DNA from: Escherichia phage vB_EcoM_3HA14
Direction: 5' to 3' (one strand)
Length of the DNA: 64,000 nt
Sequence record: MN342151.1
Of this stretch, positions 1 through 60,557 are shown one piece after another; within the stretch, counting starts at the first letter, position 1; each line of letters opens with the position of its first letter. The notes under the pieces are model-generated. The model was not told the origin of the DNA and did no database searches. It saw only the letters and a list, made by a program, of their open reading frames with translations. A program made the translations under genes and the position numbers.

Positions 1-2373
1 TTAATCCCAGCATACAGTGTCTTCTGGAATGCTCTTAGTATCAAAACCTAAGAACTTACCAACTTCAACGGGTGATACTTTATTCCAATCCAGATTAGAA
101 AGCAAGAAGTTTTCTTTACGGCGTTTCTCAAAGTAATCTTTGAACTTGCTTTCAAGACGCTTCTTAGCATTATCCAGAACCTTTCTTGGCTTACAAGAAC
201 CTCTCATATTCCTGCGAATGGTATCAAGAGTACTGGTAATATCTTTGTAAGCAACTGGTGCAGCAGTATATGCCAAGCGTCCAAACATTGCTTCTATAGC
301 CTCTTCATTCCCCTCTAAGAAAATAGTCTTCTTAAAGTCTTTACTGTAAATGTGGCCTCTGGACTTACGCTTATCAGCAAACATAAAGTTTCGAGAAATC
401 ACATTACAATCAGTGATATCATGATTATTAGTCATATATTGGTGAGTCAAGAAACGATGATACTCAATCCAATGTGTAGCATCAATGAAATCTTTCATCA
501 CTTGTTCATTGACTTCTGTCCAGTCTTCAGGAATCTTTTTCCAGTTGGCTTTACGGAAGACATAAACTGACTGTCCAGTTAACTCTGTCATCAACGTTGC
601 AGCACGTTCTGGTGAACATGAGAAGATTCCACCAATCACTTCATCACTCTGTGCTTTGATATAGAGTTGTGGTTCTTCAATCTCATCAAAGTTCTCTTTA
701 ACCTCTGTATAGCGAATTATGTCAGTGTTTGGACATATAAATGCTTTATACAGTTTTACAACACCACGTACAATAGTACGTTTCTCATAGTGGTGCTCTT
801 TAGATGACATTGTATGCACACTTAACAGACTCTTGTCAAGCATATGCAAATCTACAAACTCATCAAATTGCTGCTGACTGCTGAACAAGAAAGCAATACC
901 ATTGTAGCGACGGAAGTTAGAGTCTTCCTGTTCACGGTCACGGCAAGCTCCACGTATAATCTGGTTTTTACCAGTTGTCTTTTCAGACCCGTTCTTGTTT
1001 CGACGGTCATTGATAAGGAACAAATAGTTGCTCAACTTATCTTTACTCATTGCACCAAAGATACTAAACATTGCTGCATCTTGTGAATAAGTTGCTGAAG
1101 TTGCTCGAATACGGTTCTCCAGACTGCTGTACTTGTAGTATGCTACAGGTTCATACAGGTTACCAATATTAGGAACTGGATTACCATCTTTGTCAAGCCT
1201 CAAGTTACCTGCATCATCTTTCAAGAATGACGGAGAACCATCTGCTTCAGTTAACTGACCACGACGGATACCTAACAGTTTTTGTTCAAGCTTTTTCAAG
1301 TTCTGGCCTTGCCATTCCAGAGAATCTTGGACGTGAATAAAGATTTCACGAGCCTCCTTCCTCATGGTATCATAGGCTTGAGCAGCATCAATCAGAGTTG
1401 GCTTGTTAGCAATCTCTTTTACCACATCTTCTACGATTGTCTTAGTGATTTTCTTCACAGCTTCAACAATCTTGGTCTTAGTGGTCTCATTCATCTGCAA
1501 TGCTTCACGAGATGCAGCAATAGCCACTGAACCAATTGGCATGTAGATGTTAACAAGGTCTACAGCACTACGGAAGAACTGAGGCAGAATGCTTGTAAAC
1601 TCTGAACCAAGCAACTCACCCATTTCAACAGGATAAGCAATATTACCCATGATTACATTGAAATGGACACTGTTACTATTTGAACGCCAGTTCTCTTTGT
1701 ACTTCATTGCATCATAGACACCATCTTCACGAGAAATGGAAGTCATTGCTTCAAGAATGTCATAGTACTCAACATTACACTCTGGCTTAACTTTAAAGTA
1801 CGAGTATACATTGCTCGCTTCTTCATGAAACTTGTTGATACGGTTATCGGATACCGCTACTCGAACAGCTAAACCATTTGGCTCTGTAGTTGGGTTAGTA
1901 GTCAACTTAGTTACTTGAGGGATACCATTCTCAAGGTAAACTGAGTATTTGTTAACTACACCATCAACATAGCTTGATACAGTGAATGACTGAGCAATTG
2001 CAAAAGGTGACTTTGAACCGATACCCATAGCACCAATGTAGTCGTTTGAATCGTTCTTTGTAGATTCTCCATAGGTCATGTAAAGTTTCATAACTTTATC
2101 ATGAGTCAGCCCTGTACCAAAGTCACGAACTTCAAAGAATGGCTCGAAACGAGTTGGTAAGTGAACCAAGAAAGGTTTATCAACGTTACCAGAATCAATG
2201 TGAGCATCTACTGCGTTACATGACAATTCACGAATTACAGCACGTTCTTTATATGTGTAAACACCTGAGCTTAGAAGACTGAACATTTCAGGTGTCATCT
2301 TAATCTGAGCCTGAGAGGTTTCCAGTGTACTTGAGCTTTTAATTACCGTTGCGTGGTCATTTACCATGCGCAT
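1..2373 (-). CDS. rIIA: rIIA-like protein (GHKL/HATPase-type N-terminal domain)
   Basis: 790 aa ORF; N-terminal motifs RELxxNAVDAH, RDFGTG, GxGSKSPF collinear with T4 rIIA; ATG at 2371-2373 with AAGGAG about 9 nt upstream; stop at window position 1-3. Confidence 0.85.
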   Translation of the reverse strand: MRMVNDHATVIKSSSTLETSQAQIKMTPEMFSLLSSGVYTYKERAVIRELSCNAVDAHIDSGNVDKPFLVHLPTRFEPFFEVRDFGTGLTHDKVMKLYMTYGESTKNDSNDYIGAMGIGSKSPFAIAQSFTVSSYVDGVVNKYSVYLENGIPQVTKLTTNPTTEPNGLAVRVAVSDNRINKFHEEASNVYSYFKVKPECNVEYYDILEAMTSISREDGVYDAMKYKENWRSNSNSVHFNVIMGNIAYPVEMGELLGSEFTSILPQFFRSAVDLVNIYMPIGSVAIAASREALQMNETTKTKIVEAVKKITKTIVEDVVKEIANKPTLIDAAQAYDTMRKEAREIFIHVQDSLEWQGQNLKKLEQKLLGIRRGQLTEADGSPSFLKDDAGNLRLDKDGNPVPNIGNLYEPVAYYKYSSLENRIRATSATYSQDAAMFSIFGAMSKDKLSNYLFLINDRRNKNGSEKTTGKNQIIRGACRDREQEDSNFRRYNGIAFLFSSQQQFDEFVDLHMLDKSLLSVHTMSSKEHHYEKRTIVRGVVKLYKAFICPNTDIIRYTEVKENFDEIEEPQLYIKAQSDEVIGGIFSCSPERAATLMTELTGQSVYVFRKANWKKIPEDWTEVNEQVMKDFIDATHWIEYHRFLTHQYMTNNHDITDCNVISRNFMFADKRKSRGHIYSKDFKKTIFLEGNEEAIEAMFGRLAYTAAPVAYKDITSTLDTIRRNMRGSCKPRKVLDNAKKRLESKFKDYFEKRRKENFLLSNLDWNKVSPVEVGKFLGFDTKSIPEDTVCWD

Positions 2374-2596: not shown

Positions 2597-2944
2597 CTAA
2601 CCAATAACCTTGCATACCTTATCTCCTATAGTTCTGAATAGGACAAAACTTCTGTCATGAACAATACTCGAAGATACTGCAAAACTATTCTCAAGTATCT
2701 TTTTGTTTGGATTGTAAAATTCTTCTTGAAACAAATCAAGAGCTTCTTGATGGTTCTGTGGAAGACCTTTGATATAAACCTTCAAAGTAACCGTTGTATA
2801 AATCTCAGAAGCTAACTCTGATTGTGCTGCTTGAAACAGTTCATTGATAAACTTATGACCATCTTCATGGCGCTTGATGTTTTCCCAACGTTCTTCAATG
2901 ATTAAATTAACATTCATCTGTTTAATTTTCATAGTAATCTCCAC
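2597..2944 (-). CDS. hypothetical protein
   Basis: 115 aa ORF, no recognisable motif; follows a terminator-like hairpin. Confidence 0.45.
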   Translation of the reverse strand: MEITMKIKQMNVNLIIEERWENIKRHEDGHKFINELFQAAQSELASEIYTTVTLKVYIKGLPQNHQEALDLFQEEFYNPNKKILENSFAVSSSIVHDRSFVLFRTIGDKVCKVIG

Positions 2945-2954
2945 AAATTAAAAA

Positions 2955-2970
2955 GGCTCCCGTAGGAGCC
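2955..2970 (-). terminator. intrinsic terminator-like hairpin (GGCTCC-CGUA-GGAGCC) with U-tract on minus strand
   Basis: inverted repeat ggctcc/ggagcc followed on the minus strand by a T-run; lies just downstream of the NadV-family gene. Confidence 0.5.
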
Positions 2971-2985
2971 TCTTATCATACTGTT

Positions 2986-4803
2986 TTAAAGTTGCTTGTC
3001 AATAGTATTTCGAACATCACGCAGGTTAATGTAACCGTAAGGTTGCGAGTTGCTAAATACCAGTTTCAAAGCACTATGACAATTGTCAATTGCACCTTCA
3101 AACTCTGCAAAGCCAAAACCGTCTACAGCTACTAGCTTGTCACCATCCCACATAGGTACAACTCCACCAAAAGCAGACTTCTTAAGGCCACTGTCAGTTT
3201 TAGGGTCTTTAGCCAGCATAATTTCTTGACCATCCATCTGTGCAAGAGTTGCTTTAACAGCAAATGCAAAGGTGTCACGAGTCAGGTACTGATAGGTGTA
3301 TGAGCCTACACCAAACACTACGTTAGAACTTGCAAAACCTTTATCAGCAAGACGTAACAGAATCTCATTAGCCCTCTCCAGAGTGATAGAATCACCGTAG
3401 ATTAGCCCAATGTGCTCATCCAGTACTTTGTACCCTTTGGAGTTAACAGTGCCACCAAAGATGTTATACAGCGTGTGGATAGCTCCATCAATTTCTGCTG
3501 TTAACATACGCTTCACAGTAAACTGTCCAGTCTTCTGAGCAGTAATCAGGTTGATTGTATCAGCAGATTCAAAATCTTCTTTATCAACAACCATCTCATA
3601 ACCTTCAGAGATTAGCCAAGCAGAGAACCCAAAGCCAATATCAGACATTTCACAATTCAAGATTGTGTCATGCAGATGTGTATTGTTCGGTGCAAGCTCT
3701 TTCATGTGCTTATAGAACATTGACTTAGCAGTTTCCCATTCAATGGCTTTGTAACCTGTGACAATGTGAACAGGGTCTCCAGAGTCTGGACGGATTACCA
3801 ACTTACCATCACGATTCAGGATTACATTACGTAGCTCTGGCAGAATCTGTGTAACAGTACGCCAGAAGTTGTAAGTATCTGATACGGCACTTGCAATACC
3901 AGTTGGGTAAACTTCTGTCAGAAGGCGATGGAAAGTTTCTACCTCACCACGCCAACGCATTGCATCAAGTAAGTTGTCAGAATGCGATAGATGCCAATCA
4001 CTTACCTCTTTGTTAAGACTGTTCCATGAGATGTTTGCACACATCACAGAGTGCTCAGTAGCCGGGACAGAGTTACCAATCTCACCTACATTCATAAACT
4101 GACCATATGCACGTTTAGCTGTATATACAGCAGGGAAGCTGTCAGTACCTTTAAAACTTGTCAGGTGACCTACTGCGTTAAACGCATCATCTGTGAAGCC
4201 AGACATACCACGCATTGCAAAGTCATGACACTGCCAAGGTAAATGGAAGTCATTGTCACAGGTCTTATCAGCCCATTGCTTACAGATACGTTTGTAATGC
4301 AGTGCAATAGTTGCAATCGTACAAGCCTTCCAGATTTCAGCAGAGAAAGCATCTTCAAGATAACCAGCTACCCAATGGAATCCTTCTACAGTGTTTTTGA
4401 AGACAATCATCGGGACACGCATAGGGACAATTGTACCTTCCTCTACAGAGTAGACTTCAACAGGCAGGTAACCCAAGTCATGAAGTTCTTCCCAATGTTG
4501 ACGACCAATAGCATCTGCACCAAGGACACCATTCATGATTTCCAAGATTTCGTCAATGGCTTCTTTCTTATCACGTTCAAAGAACGTTGCATTCCAGTGG
4601 TCTACCAGATAGTCTTTTACAAAACGCTGAATACCAAAAGCTACAACACCATCAATCTCTAACGGAGAGTTAAACCATTTATCTCCACGAGGTGTTAAGT
4701 TCAACATAAGATACTGTGTAGCATCTGGATACTGATAGATATGACCCGCTTTATAAGCATCTGCATTAAGACCTGCTGGTACTGCATAGATTGATTTAGT
4801 CAT
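2986..4803 (-). CDS. nicotinamide phosphoribosyltransferase family protein (NadV-like; candidate Namat of a NAD+ reconstitution pathway)
   Basis: 605 aa; NAMPT/NadV-family features recognised by eye along the whole translation (e.g. KAGHIYQYP near N-terminus); ATG at 4801-4803; GAGAGAGAUA motif just upstream of start. Confidence 0.75.
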   Translation of the reverse strand: MTKSIYAVPAGLNADAYKAGHIYQYPDATQYLMLNLTPRGDKWFNSPLEIDGVVAFGIQRFVKDYLVDHWNATFFERDKKEAIDEILEIMNGVLGADAIGRQHWEELHDLGYLPVEVYSVEEGTIVPMRVPMIVFKNTVEGFHWVAGYLEDAFSAEIWKACTIATIALHYKRICKQWADKTCDNDFHLPWQCHDFAMRGMSGFTDDAFNAVGHLTSFKGTDSFPAVYTAKRAYGQFMNVGEIGNSVPATEHSVMCANISWNSLNKEVSDWHLSHSDNLLDAMRWRGEVETFHRLLTEVYPTGIASAVSDTYNFWRTVTQILPELRNVILNRDGKLVIRPDSGDPVHIVTGYKAIEWETAKSMFYKHMKELAPNNTHLHDTILNCEMSDIGFGFSAWLISEGYEMVVDKEDFESADTINLITAQKTGQFTVKRMLTAEIDGAIHTLYNIFGGTVNSKGYKVLDEHIGLIYGDSITLERANEILLRLADKGFASSNVVFGVGSYTYQYLTRDTFAFAVKATLAQMDGQEIMLAKDPKTDSGLKKSAFGGVVPMWDGDKLVAVDGFGFAEFEGAIDNCHSALKLVFSNSQPYGYINLRDVRNTIDKQL

Positions 4804-4847
4804 CTTTTTATCTCTCTCAAAGTGGGGCTTTTCAGCCCCTAAAGTTG

Positions 4848-5729
4848 TTATTCAATATTTGCTACGGTCACTTGTGAGAAGTGGGAAAGACCACGGTCTT
4901 TTTCATCCCCTAGTGAGTTTGTAGTGTAGATATGGTCGATACCATTGTCAAGGAGATTTTCAACACCTTTAGAGAAAATCCCATGAGTAACATAAAGCTC
5001 TACACGTTCTGCTCCAGCTTCACGAAGATACTTTGCAGCCTCGATAAAGGTTCGACCACCATCACAGATATCATCCAGAATCATAACAGTCTTACCTGTT
5101 AAGTCTACATCATCAAGGATGCGCATACCAGTGATTTCACCAGTTTTCAGGTTTCGTACCTTCGACATTGTAATATAAGGTTTCTCAACCTCTTTAGCAG
5201 CCTCTTCAGTCTTCTTAGCTGCACCTGCATCTGGAGCCACTAAGTAATCAATGCGTGGGTCACTTGCAAAGTGGACTGCTGCCTCTTTTTGAGGGAGGTT
5301 GTAGAAGCTCTTAAACAAATTCTCTGCAACATTACTGTGAGTATCCAGAGCACATACTGCATCGAACTCCATAGCATTTACAAGATTTGCAAAGACTTTA
5401 AGTGCTGCTGCATCACCTTTAAACATGTGACGGTCATAGCGAGCATTTGGTAAGAATCCAAAAAGAACAGTTTTCATGGTTGCTTTCTGAGGAATCAAGC
5501 GGTCAATAGCCTCTTTAGCCATAGCCAATGCAAAGAGTGTGTCTTTGTCATAACCTTGTACAGTGAAGATAACATTTTCAATCTTACCAGCAGCATGTTC
5601 AACAAAGCCTACTAAGTCTTCTGAGAAGTTACCACCAATCTCCCCAGAAGGGAACTGGATAATGTTGAAGGTCTCTTGATGAGAACCTTTGGAATTTGAA
5701 TTAAGTAGAACTCGAATAGTAGTTTTCAT
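4848..5729 (-). CDS. ribose-phosphate pyrophosphokinase (Prs) family protein (candidate Adps of a NAD+ reconstitution pathway)
   Basis: PRPP-binding PRTase motif VMILDDICDGGRT; ORF track start 5747 is TTG; ATG at 5727-5729 preceded by GAGAGAGAUA; immediately upstream of the NadV-family gene. Confidence 0.75.
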   Translation of the reverse strand: MKTTIRVLLNSNSKGSHQETFNIIQFPSGEIGGNFSEDLVGFVEHAAGKIENVIFTVQGYDKDTLFALAMAKEAIDRLIPQKATMKTVLFGFLPNARYDRHMFKGDAAALKVFANLVNAMEFDAVCALDTHSNVAENLFKSFYNLPQKEAAVHFASDPRIDYLVAPDAGAAKKTEEAAKEVEKPYITMSKVRNLKTGEITGMRILDDVDLTGKTVMILDDICDGGRTFIEAAKYLREAGAERVELYVTHGIFSKGVENLLDNGIDHIYTTNSLGDEKDRGLSHFSQVTVANIE

Positions 5730-5739
5730 AATATCTCTC

Positions 5740-6018
5740 TCAGTCAAAAGTTACAAATGTTACAGCCATAGCTGATTTACATTTCTTTGGGTCTACAATG
5801 TGGTAGATAACTGAACAGTTTCCTGTTCCGTCTGGTACTGGTTTTGTCCAAGTACGTTCAATATTTGGCTCTCCAAACTCTTTATAGAATCCGTTGGAGT
5901 AGTGGTCTATCATCTCAATAGCAAGTGCATCTGGGACGTGACCACGTATCATATACATCTCACTACCATTTCCAGCTTCGCTAATAAGCTCTTTGATATC
6001 CCATTGTTCTCTAGCCAT
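5740..6018 (-). CDS. hypothetical protein
   Basis: ORF 5740..6045 trimmed to internal ATG at 6016-6018 with GAGG RBS; start overlaps stop of upstream gene. Confidence 0.4.
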   Translation of the reverse strand: MAREQWDIKELISEAGNGSEMYMIRGHVPDALAIEMIDHYSNGFYKEFGEPNIERTWTKPVPDGTGNCSVIYHIVDPKKCKSAMAVTFVTFD

Positions 6019-6526
6019 GATAAGTTGCCTCATAAACTGTCTCAAGCTTCAACAAGAGTGATATTGCCAGAACTGCATATTCCCTGTCAAGCATTGGTGG
6101 CATATTATTTTTAAGATATGCTTTCTGTTCCTCCCAAGTCATCTTAGGGGCTTCTGGAAGCTTCTCTCCCTGCTTCTGGTTATCTTCTTGAGTCTGGATA
6201 AACCAGTTCGAGCAATGGTGCTCTCCACCTTTTGTCACGGGCTTATGGTGGCCTAATGTGAAAGCTTTCTTTCCAGAATATCTACAAAGCTTATTAAGGG
6301 TTGCAATAGTGTTCTTGACAACGCAGTATTCATAGAGGTTGTCAATAGTGTAATGAGGGTAGTACTGGAACAAGGCACTATCACGGAACTTACCACGATT
6401 CCAAAGCACCATGTGATTAGAATTTGAAGGGTCATACTGATGTGACTCGATGAACTCTTGACGCTCATCAAAATCAAGACGAAGAACAGACATTGCAGCA
6501 GCACGTTTCAGATTTGAATGGTACAT
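6011..6526 (-). CDS. HNH endonuclease-like protein (possible homing endonuclease)
   Basis: 171 aa; C..C...GHHKPVTKGGEHHCSNW...N pattern resembling HNH motif; weak, read by eye only. Confidence 0.3.
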   Translation of the reverse strand: MYHSNLKRAAAMSVLRLDFDERQEFIESHQYDPSNSNHMVLWNRGKFRDSALFQYYPHYTIDNLYEYCVVKNTIATLNKLCRYSGKKAFTLGHHKPVTKGGEHHCSNWFIQTQEDNQKQGEKLPEAPKMTWEEQKAYLKNNMPPMLDREYAVLAISLLLKLETVYEATYHG

Positions 6527-6545
6527 GATTTCTCCAAAATAAAAA

Positions 6546-6565
6546 GGGAACCTTTTACAGTTCCC
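6546..6565 (-). terminator. intrinsic terminator-like hairpin GGGAAC-CUGUAAAAGG-GUUCCC
   Basis: perfect inverted repeat followed on minus strand by T-run; downstream of ORF 6579..6890. Confidence 0.5.
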
Positions 6566-6578
6566 TAATCATATACGC

Positions 6579-58123: not shown

Positions 58124-58199
58124 TGGAGTATCGGAAGGGACTCGAACCCTCATAAACCTGTTTTGCAGACAGGCACATAACCATTTCTGACACCGACAC
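58124..58199 (-). tRNA. tRNA-Cys (GCA)
   Basis: manual fold: acceptor GTGTCGG/CCGATAC, anticodon loop CTGCAAA, T-loop TTCGAGT, U73, encoded CCA. Confidence 0.7.
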
Positions 58200-58205
58200 A
58201 TAATT

Positions 58206-58298
58206 TGGAGGAAGATACCAGACTTGAACTGGTACGCCGATTTCTCGGTTACTGGCAGTTTAGCAAACTGCTCCCTTACCTTTTAGGGTTAATCTTCC
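58206..58298 (-). tRNA. tRNA-Ser (GCU), long variable arm
   Basis: acceptor GGAAGAT/ATCTTCC, anticodon loop TTGCTAA, variable-arm hairpin, T-arm ACCAG-TTCAAGT-CTGGT. Confidence 0.7.
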
Positions 58299-58299
58299 A

Positions 58300-59034
58300 T
58301 TATTTGTTCAGAGCTTCTTTCATCTCTGGAGTTGCGATAGTATCAATCACACCAGTTTTACATGAATCATCAAACCAGCTTGGTAGAACATTCGCAAGGA
58401 AACCATTAATATTTGTTTTCAGATATTCTGCAATCAGTGCTGCTTCATCTGCAATCATCTGAGTTACTTCGTTAGCATATGCAGTAATCTTTGCAATACC
58501 CTCATTAATCGCTGTAACGGCCTGTGTAGCGAGTTCAGAGATTGTATCTAGTCCTTGGTCGATTGCATCTTGCAAATCGCTTAGAACGCCATTTACAGCG
58601 TCTATGGAGGTATTAATCAAATCCATCGCTTTATTACCGTACTCGGTAGCTACGCCCATGATACCGCTAAACGGTGTACATCCAACCTGTTCACCTGCTG
58701 CTCCCATAACGTTAGAGTAACCTTTAGCTACTTGCATACGTTGTGAAAACTCATCTACAGACTTTTGTCCATACTCAGTAAGTGTACTTGTCGTTGAAGT
58801 TGTACTTCCAAGGCTTGTTGTGAAGCTTCCTAATAAGGCTGTTGTCAGTCCAGCAGCAACTAAAATCTGTTGTGTAGCTGGGTCTGTTACAGAACTAATT
58901 GAGTTAACTAATGATTGAGAGGCAGCTATAGTACCACCAAGAACTGCTGCACCAGTAATAAGAGGGTTTGAAAAACCATTACCAGTTTTAAGGAGATTAA
59001 AAATCTCTTTACTTTGTTCTGTCATCTCTTTCAT
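58300..59034 (-). CDS. hypothetical Ala/Thr/Ser-rich protein embedded in tRNA array
   Basis: ORF track start (GTG at 59097) would overlap a tRNA; trimmed to in-frame ATG at 59032-59034 with AGGTG RBS. Confidence 0.4.
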   Translation of the reverse strand: MKEMTEQSKEIFNLLKTGNGFSNPLITGAAVLGGTIAASQSLVNSISSVTDPATQQILVAAGLTTALLGSFTTSLGSTTSTTSTLTEYGQKSVDEFSQRMQVAKGYSNVMGAAGEQVGCTPFSGIMGVATEYGNKAMDLINTSIDAVNGVLSDLQDAIDQGLDTISELATQAVTAINEGIAKITAYANEVTQMIADEAALIAEYLKTNINGFLANVLPSWFDDSCKTGVIDTIATPEMKEALNK

Positions 59035-59050
59035 TATGCACCTATAAAGT

Positions 59051-59127
59051 TGGTAGCCCATCGGGATTTGAACCCTGTTCTCATGTTTTTCAGACACGCG
59101 CTTTAACCATATAAGCTAATTGAGCTA
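59051..59127 (-). tRNA. tRNA-Phe (GAA), tentative
   Basis: anticodon loop CTGAAAA and T-loop TTCAAAT clear; acceptor and T-stem pairings imperfect in manual fold. Confidence 0.45.
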
Positions 59128-59133
59128 TTAAAT

Positions 59134-59210
59134 TGGGGTGACCTACGGGAATCGAACCCGTATAGACCATGTTCACAGCATGGGTCATTATCCATTTATG
59201 ATAAGGCCAC
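59134..59210 (-). tRNA. tRNA-His (GUG)
   Basis: acceptor GTGGCCT/AGGTCAC, anticodon stem CCATG/CATGG with loop CTGTGAA, C73. Confidence 0.7.
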
Positions 59211-59241
59211 ATTTAAGGACTCTCGTAAGAATCCTTAGAAG

Positions 59242-59317
59242 TGGCAGCAGTATAAGGATTTGAACCTTAATCTTTCAGCTTCAGAGGCTGGAGCATTGCC
59301 AGTTATGCTATACTGCT
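59242..59317 (-). tRNA. tRNA-Gln (CUG)
   Basis: 76 nt, standard numbering fits; anticodon loop CTCTGAA; G73. Confidence 0.65.
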
Positions 59318-59323
59318 AATATT

Positions 59324-59402
59324 TGGTACTCCATATCGGATTCGAACCGATACATAACACAGATTTTAAATCTGGCCTCTCTGCCAATTGGAGTAATGGA
59401 GC
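59324..59402 (-). tRNA. tRNA with anticodon UAA (Leu by anticodon), short variable arm
   Basis: anticodon stem CAGA/TCTG, loop TTTAAAA; T-arm ATCGG-TTCGAAT-CCGAT; A73; variable region only about 7 nt. Confidence 0.45.
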
Positions 59403-59404
59403 AT

Positions 59405-59480
59405 TGGCGGGGGATGATGGAATTGAACCATCTTCTTCGATTTCAAAGACCGAGGTTTTAACCTTGTAAACTAATCCCCT
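59405..59480 (-). tRNA. tRNA-Gln (UUG)
   Basis: anticodon stem TCGGT/ATCGA, loop CTTTGAA; T-arm GATGG-TTCAATT-CCATC; G73. Confidence 0.55.
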
Positions 59481-59706
59481 AACGAACTCTTGAAAGAATA
59501 TATGCGTTATTGCAAGTATCCTTATTTTCAGGTAGTGATGTTTCGAAGATAACTTGCTTAAGTTCTAATCCAGCAAAGTTATAAACAACCTTTCTAACTT
59601 CTAACGGGTCACATTGCCAACCAACCGCTATAAAGAAAGTATCTCCAAATCTACCTGTTTCAATCTTGTGGTCATCTTTATGTTTTTCAACTATGAGTTT
59701 ATACAT
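59479..59706 (-). CDS. hypothetical small protein within tRNA array
   Basis: 75 aa ORF filling the gap between two tRNAs; no motif. Confidence 0.3.
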   Translation of the reverse strand: MYKLIVEKHKDDHKIETGRFGDTFFIAVGWQCDPLEVRKVVYNFAGLELKQVIFETSLPENKDTCNNAYILSRVR

Positions 59707-59724
59707 AATGTTACCTATTAAATT

Positions 59725-59801
59725 TGGTGCAGAATAGAGGATTCGAACCCCTAACTAACAACTTCGTAGGTTGCTGCTCTGTCCATTTGAACTAATTCTG
59801 C
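59725..59801 (-). tRNA. tRNA-Arg (ACG)
   Basis: acceptor GCAGAAT/ATTCTGC, anticodon stem GCAAC/GTTGT, loop CTACGAA. Confidence 0.7.
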
Positions 59802-59979
59802 AATATCCTTTTGAGATTCCTGTCTAGCTCTCTTCTTATCTCTTCTGAGAAAGCGTTTACGATGGTCTGTACGCCATTTGTAATAATCTTCTTCACCATC
59901 ATGCGCTGCACAGCAGCCACAACTTGCAATTTCAACTTTACCATGTCTACCATAAGGCTTCATAGGAATCTCCTAAAAT

Positions 59980-60057
59980 TGGTGTTCCAAGACGGATTCG
60001 AACCGTCACTAATACAAGGTTTGAGCTTGCATCCTCTGCCAATTGGGATACTGGAAC
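59980..60057 (-). tRNA. tRNA with anticodon CAA (Leu by anticodon), short variable arm
   Basis: anticodon stem GCAAG/CTTGT, loop CTCAAAC; T-arm GACGG-TTCGAAT-CCGTC; A73; variable region about 6 nt. Confidence 0.45.
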
Positions 60058-60058
60058 T

Positions 60059-60133
60059 TGGTACTCGCTGAAGGACTTGAACCTTCTTCACCAACTTGTA
60101 AGGATGGGGCTTTACCATATAAACTAAGCGAGC
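60059..60133 (-). tRNA. tRNA-Val (UAC)
   Basis: acceptor GCTCGCT/AGCGAGT, anticodon loop CTTACAA, T-arm GAAGG-TTCAAGT-CCTTC. Confidence 0.6.
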
Positions 60134-60228
60134 TTTGAAGAGGTCTGAAGCTGTGCCGCTAACTCAACTCCGTGGAATTTGTTACGGTCTTCAGTTGACT
60201 CAAGCGGTCTTTCACTTGACCTCAAAAT

Positions 60229-60305
60229 TGGTGCTGCTCACAGGACTCGAACCTGCATCTCCATCCTTACAAGGGATGTGCAATAGCCAATTATACGAAA
60301 GCAGC
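60229..60305 (-). tRNA. tRNA-Thr (UGU)
   Basis: anticodon stem CATCC/GGATG, loop CTTGTAA; T-loop TTCGAGT. Confidence 0.65.
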
Positions 60306-60311
60306 ATTATT

Positions 60312-60386
60312 TGGAGCATCCAGAGGGAATCGAACCCTCAACCTCAGTTTGGAAGACTGTAATTTTCCCATTTAAACTATGGATGC
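60312..60386 (-). tRNA. tRNA-Gly (UCC)
   Basis: acceptor GCATCCA/TGGATGC, anticodon loop CTTCCAA, T-arm GAGGG-TTCGATT-CCCTC. Confidence 0.7.
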
Positions 60387-60392
60387 ACTAAT

Positions 60393-60468
60393 TGGTGGAG
60401 AAGCAGGGAATTGAACCCTGTACTTAAGTTTGCAAAACTTATGTTTTAACCATGTAAACTACATCCCC
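60393..60468 (-). tRNA. tRNA-Ala (UGC)
   Basis: G3-U70 wobble pair in acceptor (Ala identity element), anticodon stem TAAGT/ACTTA, loop TTTGCAA. Confidence 0.7.
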
Positions 60469-60474
60469 ATTGTT

Positions 60475-60550
60475 TGGTACAGGTGGAGGGAATTGAACCC
60501 ATCGTCTTACTGATTAAGAGTCAGCCGCATAACCATTTTGCTACACCTGC
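60475..60550 (-). tRNA. tRNA-Lys (CUU)
   Basis: anticodon stem GCTGA/TCAGT, loop CTCTTAA; weak 3-bp T-stem; paralogous to the 61927-62002 tRNA. Confidence 0.5.
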
Positions 60551-60557
60551 ATTAATT

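Follow-up and report, generated by a model that had tools for sequence, protein, structure and literature searches.

The nicotinamide adenine dinucleotide (NAD+) reconstitution pathway NARP1 was discovered in the phage Bas63, Escherichia phage JohannRWettstein (MZ501086; Osterman et al., bioRxiv 10.1101/2024.02.11.579819). It is compared here with a pair of adjacent genes, adps and namat, at positions 2986–5729 of a 64,000-nucleotide (nt) stretch of DNA from Escherichia phage vB_EcoM_3HA14 (MN342151.1), in the following called the window. This pair is very probably a NARP1 anti-defence module and an orthologue of the Bas63 system. According to the mechanism proposed for such a module, host abortive-infection effectors such as SIR2-HerA, Thoeris ThsA and DSR1/DSR2 would break NAD+ down, leaving ADP-ribose (ADPR) together with nicotinamide. 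Adps would then move pyrophosphate from ATP to the terminal ribose of ADPR, which would yield ADP-ribose pyrophosphate (ADPR-PP), and Namat would swap the pyrophosphate of ADPR-PP for nicotinamide, so that NAD+ would be formed directly, with neither nicotinamide mononucleotide (NMN) as intermediate nor the host enzymes NadR/PncC.

The genetic evidence for NARP1 comes from Bas63. Double deletion of genes 79 and 80 renders the phage sensitive to SIR2-HerA and NAD+ falls, the counter-defence persists in a host in which pncC and nadR are both deleted, and the ADPR-PP ion at m/z 720.010 was detected with wild-type Bas63 only and only if the NADase system was present (10.1101/2024.02.11.579819). Deletion of either g79 or g80 alone lowers plating of Bas63 on Sir2-HerA cells 1e4- to 1e6-fold and can be complemented (PhageMaP preprint). 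The enzymes of Bacillus phage SPbetaL1 were studied in vitro: Adps pyrophosphorylates ADPR with ATP and gives no product of the type formed by ribose-phosphate pyrophosphokinase (Prs), and Namat converts ADPR-PP and nicotinamide to NAD+ in preference to using phosphoribosyl pyrophosphate (PRPP), NAD+ being the only product when PRPP and ADPR-PP were offered together. The exchanges K162A in Adps and R306G in Namat each abolish NAD+ reconstitution (10.1101/2024.02.11.579819).

In the window, the two genes and the region between them are arranged as follows:

2986–4803, minus strand: namat (nicotinamide ADP-ribose transferase), a diverged Nampt-family gene encoding 605 amino acids (aa) from an ATG start (open reading frame (ORF) list)
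4848–5729, minus strand: adps (ADP-ribose pyrophosphate synthetase), a diverged Prs-family diphosphokinase gene encoding 293 aa, its ATG at 5729 being internal to a longer ORF
4848–5747, minus strand: adps read from an alternative TTG start at 5747, giving 299 aa (ORF list)
4804–4847, minus strand: the 44-nt spacer between adps and namat, which are co-directional with adps upstream

The 293-aa form of Adps is also the one annotated for the orthologues of Bas63 and Shigella phage Sf19. A sequence-only reading of this DNA had placed a 605-aa Nampt-family gene directly beside a 293-aa Prs-family gene and had seen in them a candidate with the architecture of NARP1; the adjacency is confirmed by the ORF list and the profile matches, and the assignment to NARP1 is borne out by the orthology to Bas63, by the clamp residues of Namat, by the preference of the second protein for an Adps profile and by a prior listing in Supplementary Table 1 of the discovery paper. 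As to the orthology, Adps of the window aligns with Bas63 gp79 without gaps along its full 293 residues at an identity of 82%, Namat is 76% identical to Bas63 gp80 over its full length in a pairwise comparison, and the order nrdG ... adps-namat ... rIIA is common to the window, Bas63 and Sf19. From this identity of 76–82% we infer that the enzymes of vB_EcoM_3HA14 would catalyse the same reactions. In a megablast search with positions 2900–5800, the same gene pair in the same synteny was recovered from 261 phage records, which at this level of comparison argues that the pairing did not arise by chance; the best match, with 99.5% identity, is Sf19 (Ounavirinae, Mooglevirus), and vB_EcoM_3HA14 belongs to the same genus. 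The discovery paper defined NARP1 by a Namat gene within 10 genes of an Adps gene (10.1101/2024.02.11.579819), and here the two lie 44 nt apart on one strand of a phage genome. Its Supplementary Table 1 contains MN342151_00005 as a Prs/Adps homologue with 'Namat within 10 genes = Yes' and MN342151_00004 as an 'Adps-associated' Namat homologue, with the pairs of Sf19 and Sf17 listed likewise (10.1101/2024.02.11.579819). Since both exact genes stand in this table, the locus has already been catalogued as NARP1.

Both proteins carry other names in GenBank. In an exact-sequence comparison, the namat product is identical to QFR58465.1, 'nicotinamide phosphoribosyltransferase', and the adps product to QFR58466.1, 'ribose-phosphate pyrophosphokinase'. 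These names speak for classical salvage, in which a true PRPP synthetase and a true Nampt would supply NMN that is turned into NAD+ via the host NadR/PncC routes, and by which NAD+ would be raised for general phage metabolism and not rebuilt from ADPR. The behaviour of the characterised enzymes disagrees with this explanation, as the Bas63 orthologues counter SIR2-HerA in the pncC nadR double-deletion host and generate ADPR-PP, and as SPbetaL1 Adps lacks a Prs-type product and its Namat gave only NAD+ from mixed substrates.

The assignment of Namat can be followed to single residues. The protein matches Pfam NAPRTase (1.4e-31), NAMPT_N, NCBIfam NF006629 (6.8e-139) and phrog_448 (1e-198), and its score of 463.6 bits lies above the cut-off of the NF006629 equivalog model 'nicotinate phosphoribosyltransferase', which is 405, and this counts in favour of salvage, as does the passing of TIGR01251 by Adps. 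The members of its GenBank cluster are named either 'nicotinate phosphoribosyltransferase' or 'nicotinamide phosphoribosyltransferase', and because Namat exceeds the NF006629 cut-off, automated annotation will keep mislabelling such genes. Namat is distinguished from Nampt by a 'selectivity clamp' with two elements, the variable loop SCL and the helix SCH, the latter with the Namat motif GSX-phi-X-phi-X-phi-TRD (PMC12774641). Both elements are found in the window:

3274–3306, minus strand: SCH motif GSYTYQYLTRD, aa 500–510 of Namat (motif definition from PMC12774641)
4648–4686, minus strand: SCL GDKWFNSPLEIDG, aa 40–52 of Namat (alignment and rule from PMC12774641)

By alignment, the residues of SPbetaL1 Namat that stack on adenine, F392 and Y396, are matched by Y502 and Y506 of the window, and T508 and D510 also belong to the SCH. 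For the SCL, the published rule asks for Arg at the third position, or for Lys or Tyr there together with a stacking fourth residue, Bas63 having Lys third and a fourth residue that stacks (PMC12774641). The loop of the window, G-D-K42-W43, agrees with this rule in the alignment, with Lys as the third residue and Trp as the fourth and predicted stacker, as in the corresponding S-D-K-W of Bas63. The nicotinamide pocket is kept (D15, Y17, F195, R198, D221 and A248 by alignment), H251 is the catalytic His, R338 is the equivalent of SPbetaL1 R306, and D340, G470, D471, G500, S501 and R509 preserve further ribose and phosphate contacts. With this set of residues, Namat would select ADPR-PP over PRPP by an adenine clamp consisting of Y502 and Y506 together with K42 and W43. 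The Namat-type SCH motif is kept in all 37 of the 37 homologues collected, close and distant ones alike. In the negative controls for the clamp, which were Haemophilus ducreyi NadV (9ke8), Xanthomonas Nampt, Matisse and D480, the equivalent segments read GAQTYQRNTRD in H. ducreyi NadV, GGALLQKVDRD in the Xanthomonas (Xcc) enzyme and GGGLLQ in Matisse and D480, and the aromatic residues are absent. The clamp in the window thus stands against classical salvage, since true Nampts lack it.

Overall comparisons order the proteins in the same manner. In a six-protein alignment, Namat of the window is 77% identical to that of Bas63, 48% to FADO, 45% to SPbetaL1 and 29–31% to Matisse and D480; Bas63, SPbetaL1 and FADO are experimentally studied NARP1 systems, and Klebsiella phage Matisse and Vibrio phage D480 represent the NARP2 type. 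A sequence search of the PDB ranked SPbetaL1 Namat (9w5w, 4e-125) before H. ducreyi NadV (9ke8, 4e-99), Xanthomonas Nampt (7yqo, 2e-49) and human NAMPT (approximately 1e-39). The AlphaFold2 model reached a predicted local distance difference test score (pLDDT) of 92.4 and a predicted template modelling score (pTM) of 0.91, and its fold was nearest to the Namat crystal structures 9w5w/9w5x (template modelling (TM) score normalised to the target 0.94), followed by H. ducreyi NadV and then mammalian NAMPT. The SPbetaL1 system therefore shares with the window its two-gene architecture and core and clamp residues that map onto one another, and it provides the best match in the PDB in both sequence and fold. 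It differs in the lower identity (45% for Namat, 31% for Adps), in a Namat of 491 aa that lacks both insertions found here, and in the residue that stacks from the loop, which is Arg40 in SPbetaL1 Namat and is replaced by the Lys-Trp pair in the window.

The same comparisons bear on a NARP2-like function, in which a Nampt would act with a phage NMN adenylyltransferase on host PRPP, as NadV with NatV in KVP40. The enzyme belongs to the family of KVP40 NadV, of which about 2,000 phage records hold a homologue, some labelled 'Nmnat-associated', and NARP2-type and cellular Nampts (Matisse, D480, 9ke8, 7yqo and human NAMPT) share with Namat the fold, the nicotinamide and ribose-phosphate core and the catalytic His. 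They are, however, without the aromatic SCH residues, their SCL-equivalent loop is shorter and they pair with Nmnat and not with a Prs homologue. Identity to the NARP2-type Nampts compared is only the 29–31% given above, with GGGLLQ at the SCH position; the annotation of Sf19 shows no NMNAT or Nudix gene in the 64 kb equivalent to the window; and the discovery paper calls the gene 'Adps-associated', not 'Nmnat-associated'. A NARP2-like function is thus extremely improbable.

The second protein of the pair falls on the same side at the level of profiles. It matches Pfam Pribosyltran and Pribosyl_synth, TIGR01251 (2e-37) and phrog_619 (1e-99), and two of its motifs are located as follows:

5151–5162, minus strand: flexible-loop motif KVRN with K190 of Adps (alignment)
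5049–5087, minus strand: ribose-phosphate-binding loop of the phosphoribosyltransferase (PRTase) type, VMILDDICDGGRT, aa 215–227 of Adps

K190 aligns with K162 of SPbetaL1 Adps. The PRTase motif VMILDDICDGGRT, to which the sequence-only reading had drawn attention, is indeed present, at aa 215–227 of the 293-aa protein. The loop has the form DDICDGGRTF, which is common to other Gram-negative phage Adps proteins; it reads DDLSSFGGTF in SPbetaL1 Adps and DDMIDTGGT in Escherichia coli Prs. The diphosphokinase motifs FPSGE, ARYDR and DTH are kept. E. coli Prs (class I) belongs to the same diphosphokinase fold family and its FxxGE, ARxDR, D-x-H and K-x-R motifs occur in Adps of the window, too; it differs by having 315 residues instead of 293, a C-terminal segment that is missing from Adps and another ribose-phosphate loop, and the two proteins are 26% identical. 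For an Adps profile, 12 phage Adps proteins linked to a Namat were used, with SPbetaL1 and FADO among them and all Ounavirinae left out. On this profile, Adps of the window scored 222 bits, Bas63 gp79 226 and E. coli Prs 133. The order is reversed on curated Prs models: on PRK01259 (cut-off 297) the window protein reached 98.6 bits, Bas63 101, SPbetaL1 74, FADO 65 and E. coli Prs 532.6, and on TIGR01251 (cut-off 113) the scores were 128.7, 139, 106, 97 and 423, respectively. The best Prs equivalog model was failed by the window protein with 106.6 bits against a cut-off of 296, and only the broad subfamily model TIGR01251 was passed. Adps of the window hence mirrors the proven Adps proteins on the curated Prs models and sides with the Adps clade, apart from cellular Prs. 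For classical salvage this is a second difficulty, since the protein prefers the Adps profile and lies about 200 bits or more below every specific Prs model, whereas E. coli Prs passes.

Fusions of both enzymes are known as well (phrog_12872; Shigella phage Ag3 FJ373894_00125), with an Adps-like N-terminal part and a Namat-like C-terminal part in a single polypeptide, and their existence argues for a functional link between Adps and Namat; in the case of Ag3, an error of gene calling or a frameshift might have produced the fused entry. The possibility that the pair is a degenerate remnant was considered and rejected, as every catalytic residue is in place and hundreds of phages keep the two proteins with high conservation.

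Several observations weigh against the assignment to NARP1 or limit its resolution. Adps of the window is about 31% identical to the assayed Adps of SPbetaL1 compared with 26% to E. coli Prs, and due to this modest identity its assignment leans on the Bas63 in vivo data and on the placement by clade and profile. A search of the PDB returned no Adps structure, the best matches being archaeal and human Prs with E values of about 1e-17, and a literature search yielded neither an Adps structure nor substrate determinants that distinguish a pocket for ADPR from one for ribose-5-phosphate. At the level of residues, the Adps half of the case is therefore weaker than the Namat half. In Namat, two positions that contact NAD differ from SPbetaL1 (S190 to A196 and A362 to S472), with the same residues present in Bas63, and the enzymes of this lineage contain about 105 extra residues. 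The in vitro chemistry was established only with the SPbetaL1 homologues, the Bas63 protein having purified poorly (10.1101/2024.02.11.579819). Moreover, SPbetaL1 Namat still makes NMN from PRPP in vitro (PMC12774641), so that some Nampt-type activity is possible, and this is also the one biochemical result that favours salvage. All tests taken together nevertheless favour NARP1 over the older pairing of NAMPT with PRPP synthetase that the sequence-only reading had kept beside it, and classical salvage is considered highly improbable. In the comparison proposed in that reading, the Adps profile was preferred and the specific Prs models failed, and by identity Namat is nearer to the studied Namats than to the NARP2-type Nampts compared. 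Its remark that sequence alone cannot tell the two pathways apart no longer applies in this form: since the Namat structure paper of 2026, the distinction can largely be made by the motif GSX-phi-X-phi-X-phi-TRD (PMC12774641).

Within the NARP1 family, Namat of the window is set apart by two insertions:

3484–3756, minus strand: larger insertion of about 90 aa (aa 350–440 of Namat), an ordered alpha/beta subdomain
3952–4029, minus strand: smaller insertion, aa 259–284 of Namat, right after the catalytic-His segment ATEHSVMCAN

In the comparison with CHARACTERISED enzymes, both insertions are extra relative to SPbetaL1 Namat. The larger one has no counterpart in the Namats of SPbetaL1 and FADO or in any of the Nampts compared. 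It is ordered inside the full model (pLDDT 92–96) and folds into a compact alpha/beta domain when modelled alone (pLDDT 94.7); no structural relative was detectable and no function could be assigned. With variable length, it occurs in the Namats of 560–610 aa of Ounavirinae-like phages and is missing from forms of about 496 aa, including chromosomal enterobacterial homologues. The smaller insertion comprises 15 aa in Felixounavirus including Bas63, 26–29 aa in Mooglevirus and about 2 aa in the forms of about 496 aa. In the window it has 26 aa, 11 residues more than in Bas63, and this difference accounts for a Namat that is 12 residues longer than that of Bas63. The two systems differ otherwise by genus, Felixounavirus for Bas63 and Mooglevirus for the window, and they agree in belonging to the Ounavirinae, in gene order and neighbours, in the K-W loop, in the large insertion and in the SCH, where there is one Leu/Met difference. 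The structural paper modelled Bas63 Namat and did not discuss the larger insertion (PMC12774641). Since Bas63 NARP1 has this domain and is functional in vivo, the insertion leaves the assignment to NARP1 unaffected. One possibility for its role is regulation, others being the docking of Adps to channel labile ADPR-PP or the evasion of a host inhibitor.

The homologues of about 496 aa are encoded on chromosomal contigs several megabases long from Klebsiella, Phytobacter, Kosakonia, Kluyvera and Citrobacter. All eight that were aligned contain a Namat-type SCH of the form GS[FY]TYQYNTRD, which suggests that they may be bacterial or prophage copies of NARP1 in Enterobacteriaceae.

The transcriptional setting of the pair and the two genes upstream of it are described by the following elements:

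2951–2974, minus strand: terminator-like hairpin with a T-run, 12 nt past the namat stop (consensus scan, pattern match only)
5740–6018, minus strand: 92-aa ORF (ORF list)
6011–6526, minus strand: 171-aa ORF (ORF list)
6545–6566, minus strand: terminator-like hairpin upstream of the two small ORFs (consensus match only)

The sequence GAGAGAGAT, which reads as Shine-Dalgarno-like, precedes the ATG of adps and that of namat alike. In the spacer at 4804–4847, a short GC-rich hairpin, AGGGGC-TGAAAA-GCCCC, is seen without a T-tract and is followed by GAGAGAGAT; this hairpin might serve the stability of the RNA or the coupling of translation. The consensus scan called no terminator in the spacer, and the layout is consistent with co-transcription of adps and namat. 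The transcription unit probably has its 3' end at the hairpin at 2951–2974. Together, the hairpins at 6566–6545 and 2974–2951 bracket four genes, namely the 171-aa ORF, the 92-aa ORF, adps and namat. Because they lie between the upstream hairpin and adps, the two small ORFs are possibly co-transcribed with NARP1, yet they stand outside its core. The promoter scan was uninformative, with 18 promoter-like sites compared with 12.7 ± 4.4 expected.

With Bas63_0077 the 171-aa protein shares 77% identity, and the 92-aa protein shares 66% with Bas63_0078; they match phrog_3500 and phrog_4726, respectively, both of unknown function. Weak matches to HNH endonucleases were obtained for the 171-aa protein (phrog_2214 at 2e-5 and phrog_7785 at 5e-4), which contains the H-H...N...N-like stretch GHHKPVTKGGEHHCSNW. 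According to a preprint, which describes it as GIY-YIG, Bas63 gp77 counters retron Ec67; this description and the weak HNH matches obtained here disagree.

These neighbours and the insertion are relevant for the question whether the NARP1 core has extra roles, such as countering retron Ec86 or hhe or supplying NAD+ and adenine nucleotides for replication, with the Namat subdomain or the co-transcribed small ORFs possibly helping. In Bas63, deletion of g79 and of g80 lowers plating on retron Ec86 approximately 10-fold and 1e3-fold, respectively, and deletion of either gene lowers fitness on hhe hosts (PhageMaP preprint). In addition, a homologue of gp77, which reportedly counters retron Ec67, lies in the terminator-bracketed unit, and the lineage conserves the insertion subdomain, which is ordered. 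However, the Ec86 and hhe phenotypes may themselves be due to depletion of NAD+ or adenine, i.e., to the same mechanism, and probably they do reflect the NAD+-restoring activity; ADPR-PP was seen only with an NADase system present, and the insertion could be given no function. Extra roles of this kind are therefore judged improbable, and the NARP1 module remains the preferred explanation.

A different extension of NARP1 is known from Vibrio phage Gary, in which the system NARP1-AP has, besides Adps and Namat, a third protein, Adpp, which is a Macro-domain phosphatase for ADPR-1''-phosphate (bioRxiv 10.64898/2026.01.28.702374). The window shares the core of Adps and Namat with it. A profile scan matched no Macro or RyR domain in the ORFs flanking the pair, and as there is no Macro or RyR gene in or beside the pair, the locus is plain NARP1 and not a NARP1-AP or RyDEP-extended locus. 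A Macro-domain gene was found outside the window in the relatives: Sf19 gp119 (MF327005, 82453–83247; Pfam Macro 3e-7) and Bas63_0095 (Pfam Macro 1e-7), in both phages about 7.5 kb from NARP1 and beyond rIIA/rIIB and the lysis genes. The N-terminal part of this protein, about 150 aa, is 30% identical to the full-length Adpp of Gary (E = 2e-16), from which it differs by an extra C-terminal region of about 110 aa. This distal, Poa1p-like Macro protein could be a non-operonic Adpp and thus part of a 'split' NARP1-AP. In the portion of the tables of the NARP1-AP/aRES paper that was available, Ounavirinae phages and their Macro protein have no entry (10.64898/2026.01.28.702374). That NARP1 of Ounavirinae exceeds the two-enzyme core, either by an insertion that adds a new property or by the distal Macro protein acting as a non-operonic Adpp, may be true and is regarded as unlikely, if somewhat less so than the extra roles discussed above.

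The surroundings of the locus are those of FelixO1-like myoviruses, with rIIA at 1–2373 and with nrdG, nrdD, a glutaredoxin gene and nrdB downstream. The rIIA homologue (1–2373, minus strand; 790 aa, Pfam HATPase_c_3) ends exactly at the edge of the window. In Bas63, rIIA/rIIB (g84 and g85) are reported to act against the defence system qatABCD (PhageMaP preprint); if so, this part of the genome would be dense in counter-defence genes. At approximately 15.7–16.5 kb, synteny with the annotated Sf19 gp88 places a 'phosphoribosyl-ATP pyrophosphohydrolase-like' gene of the MazG type, which may be another nucleotide-metabolism gene of unclear role. The window also contains 26 tRNA genes (58124–63155, minus strand), typical of FelixO1-like phages, with two each for Met, Gln, Lys, Arg and Ser and three for Leu.

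The locus is already known as NARP1, and no new biology arises from the window itself. Its value is one of annotation, as it shows that pairs of this kind can be re-annotated from the SCH motif and a Prs-like gene beside it. The points that stay of interest are the insertion subdomain of Namat and the possible non-operonic Adpp; if the latter is real, a 'split' NARP1-AP would also defeat defence of the aRES type. More generally, NARP1 is how about 4% of the sequenced phages survive NAD+-depleting immunity, including SIR2-HerA, Thoeris, DSR and other systems, and it is therefore relevant for the prediction of phage host range and for the choice of therapeutic phages.

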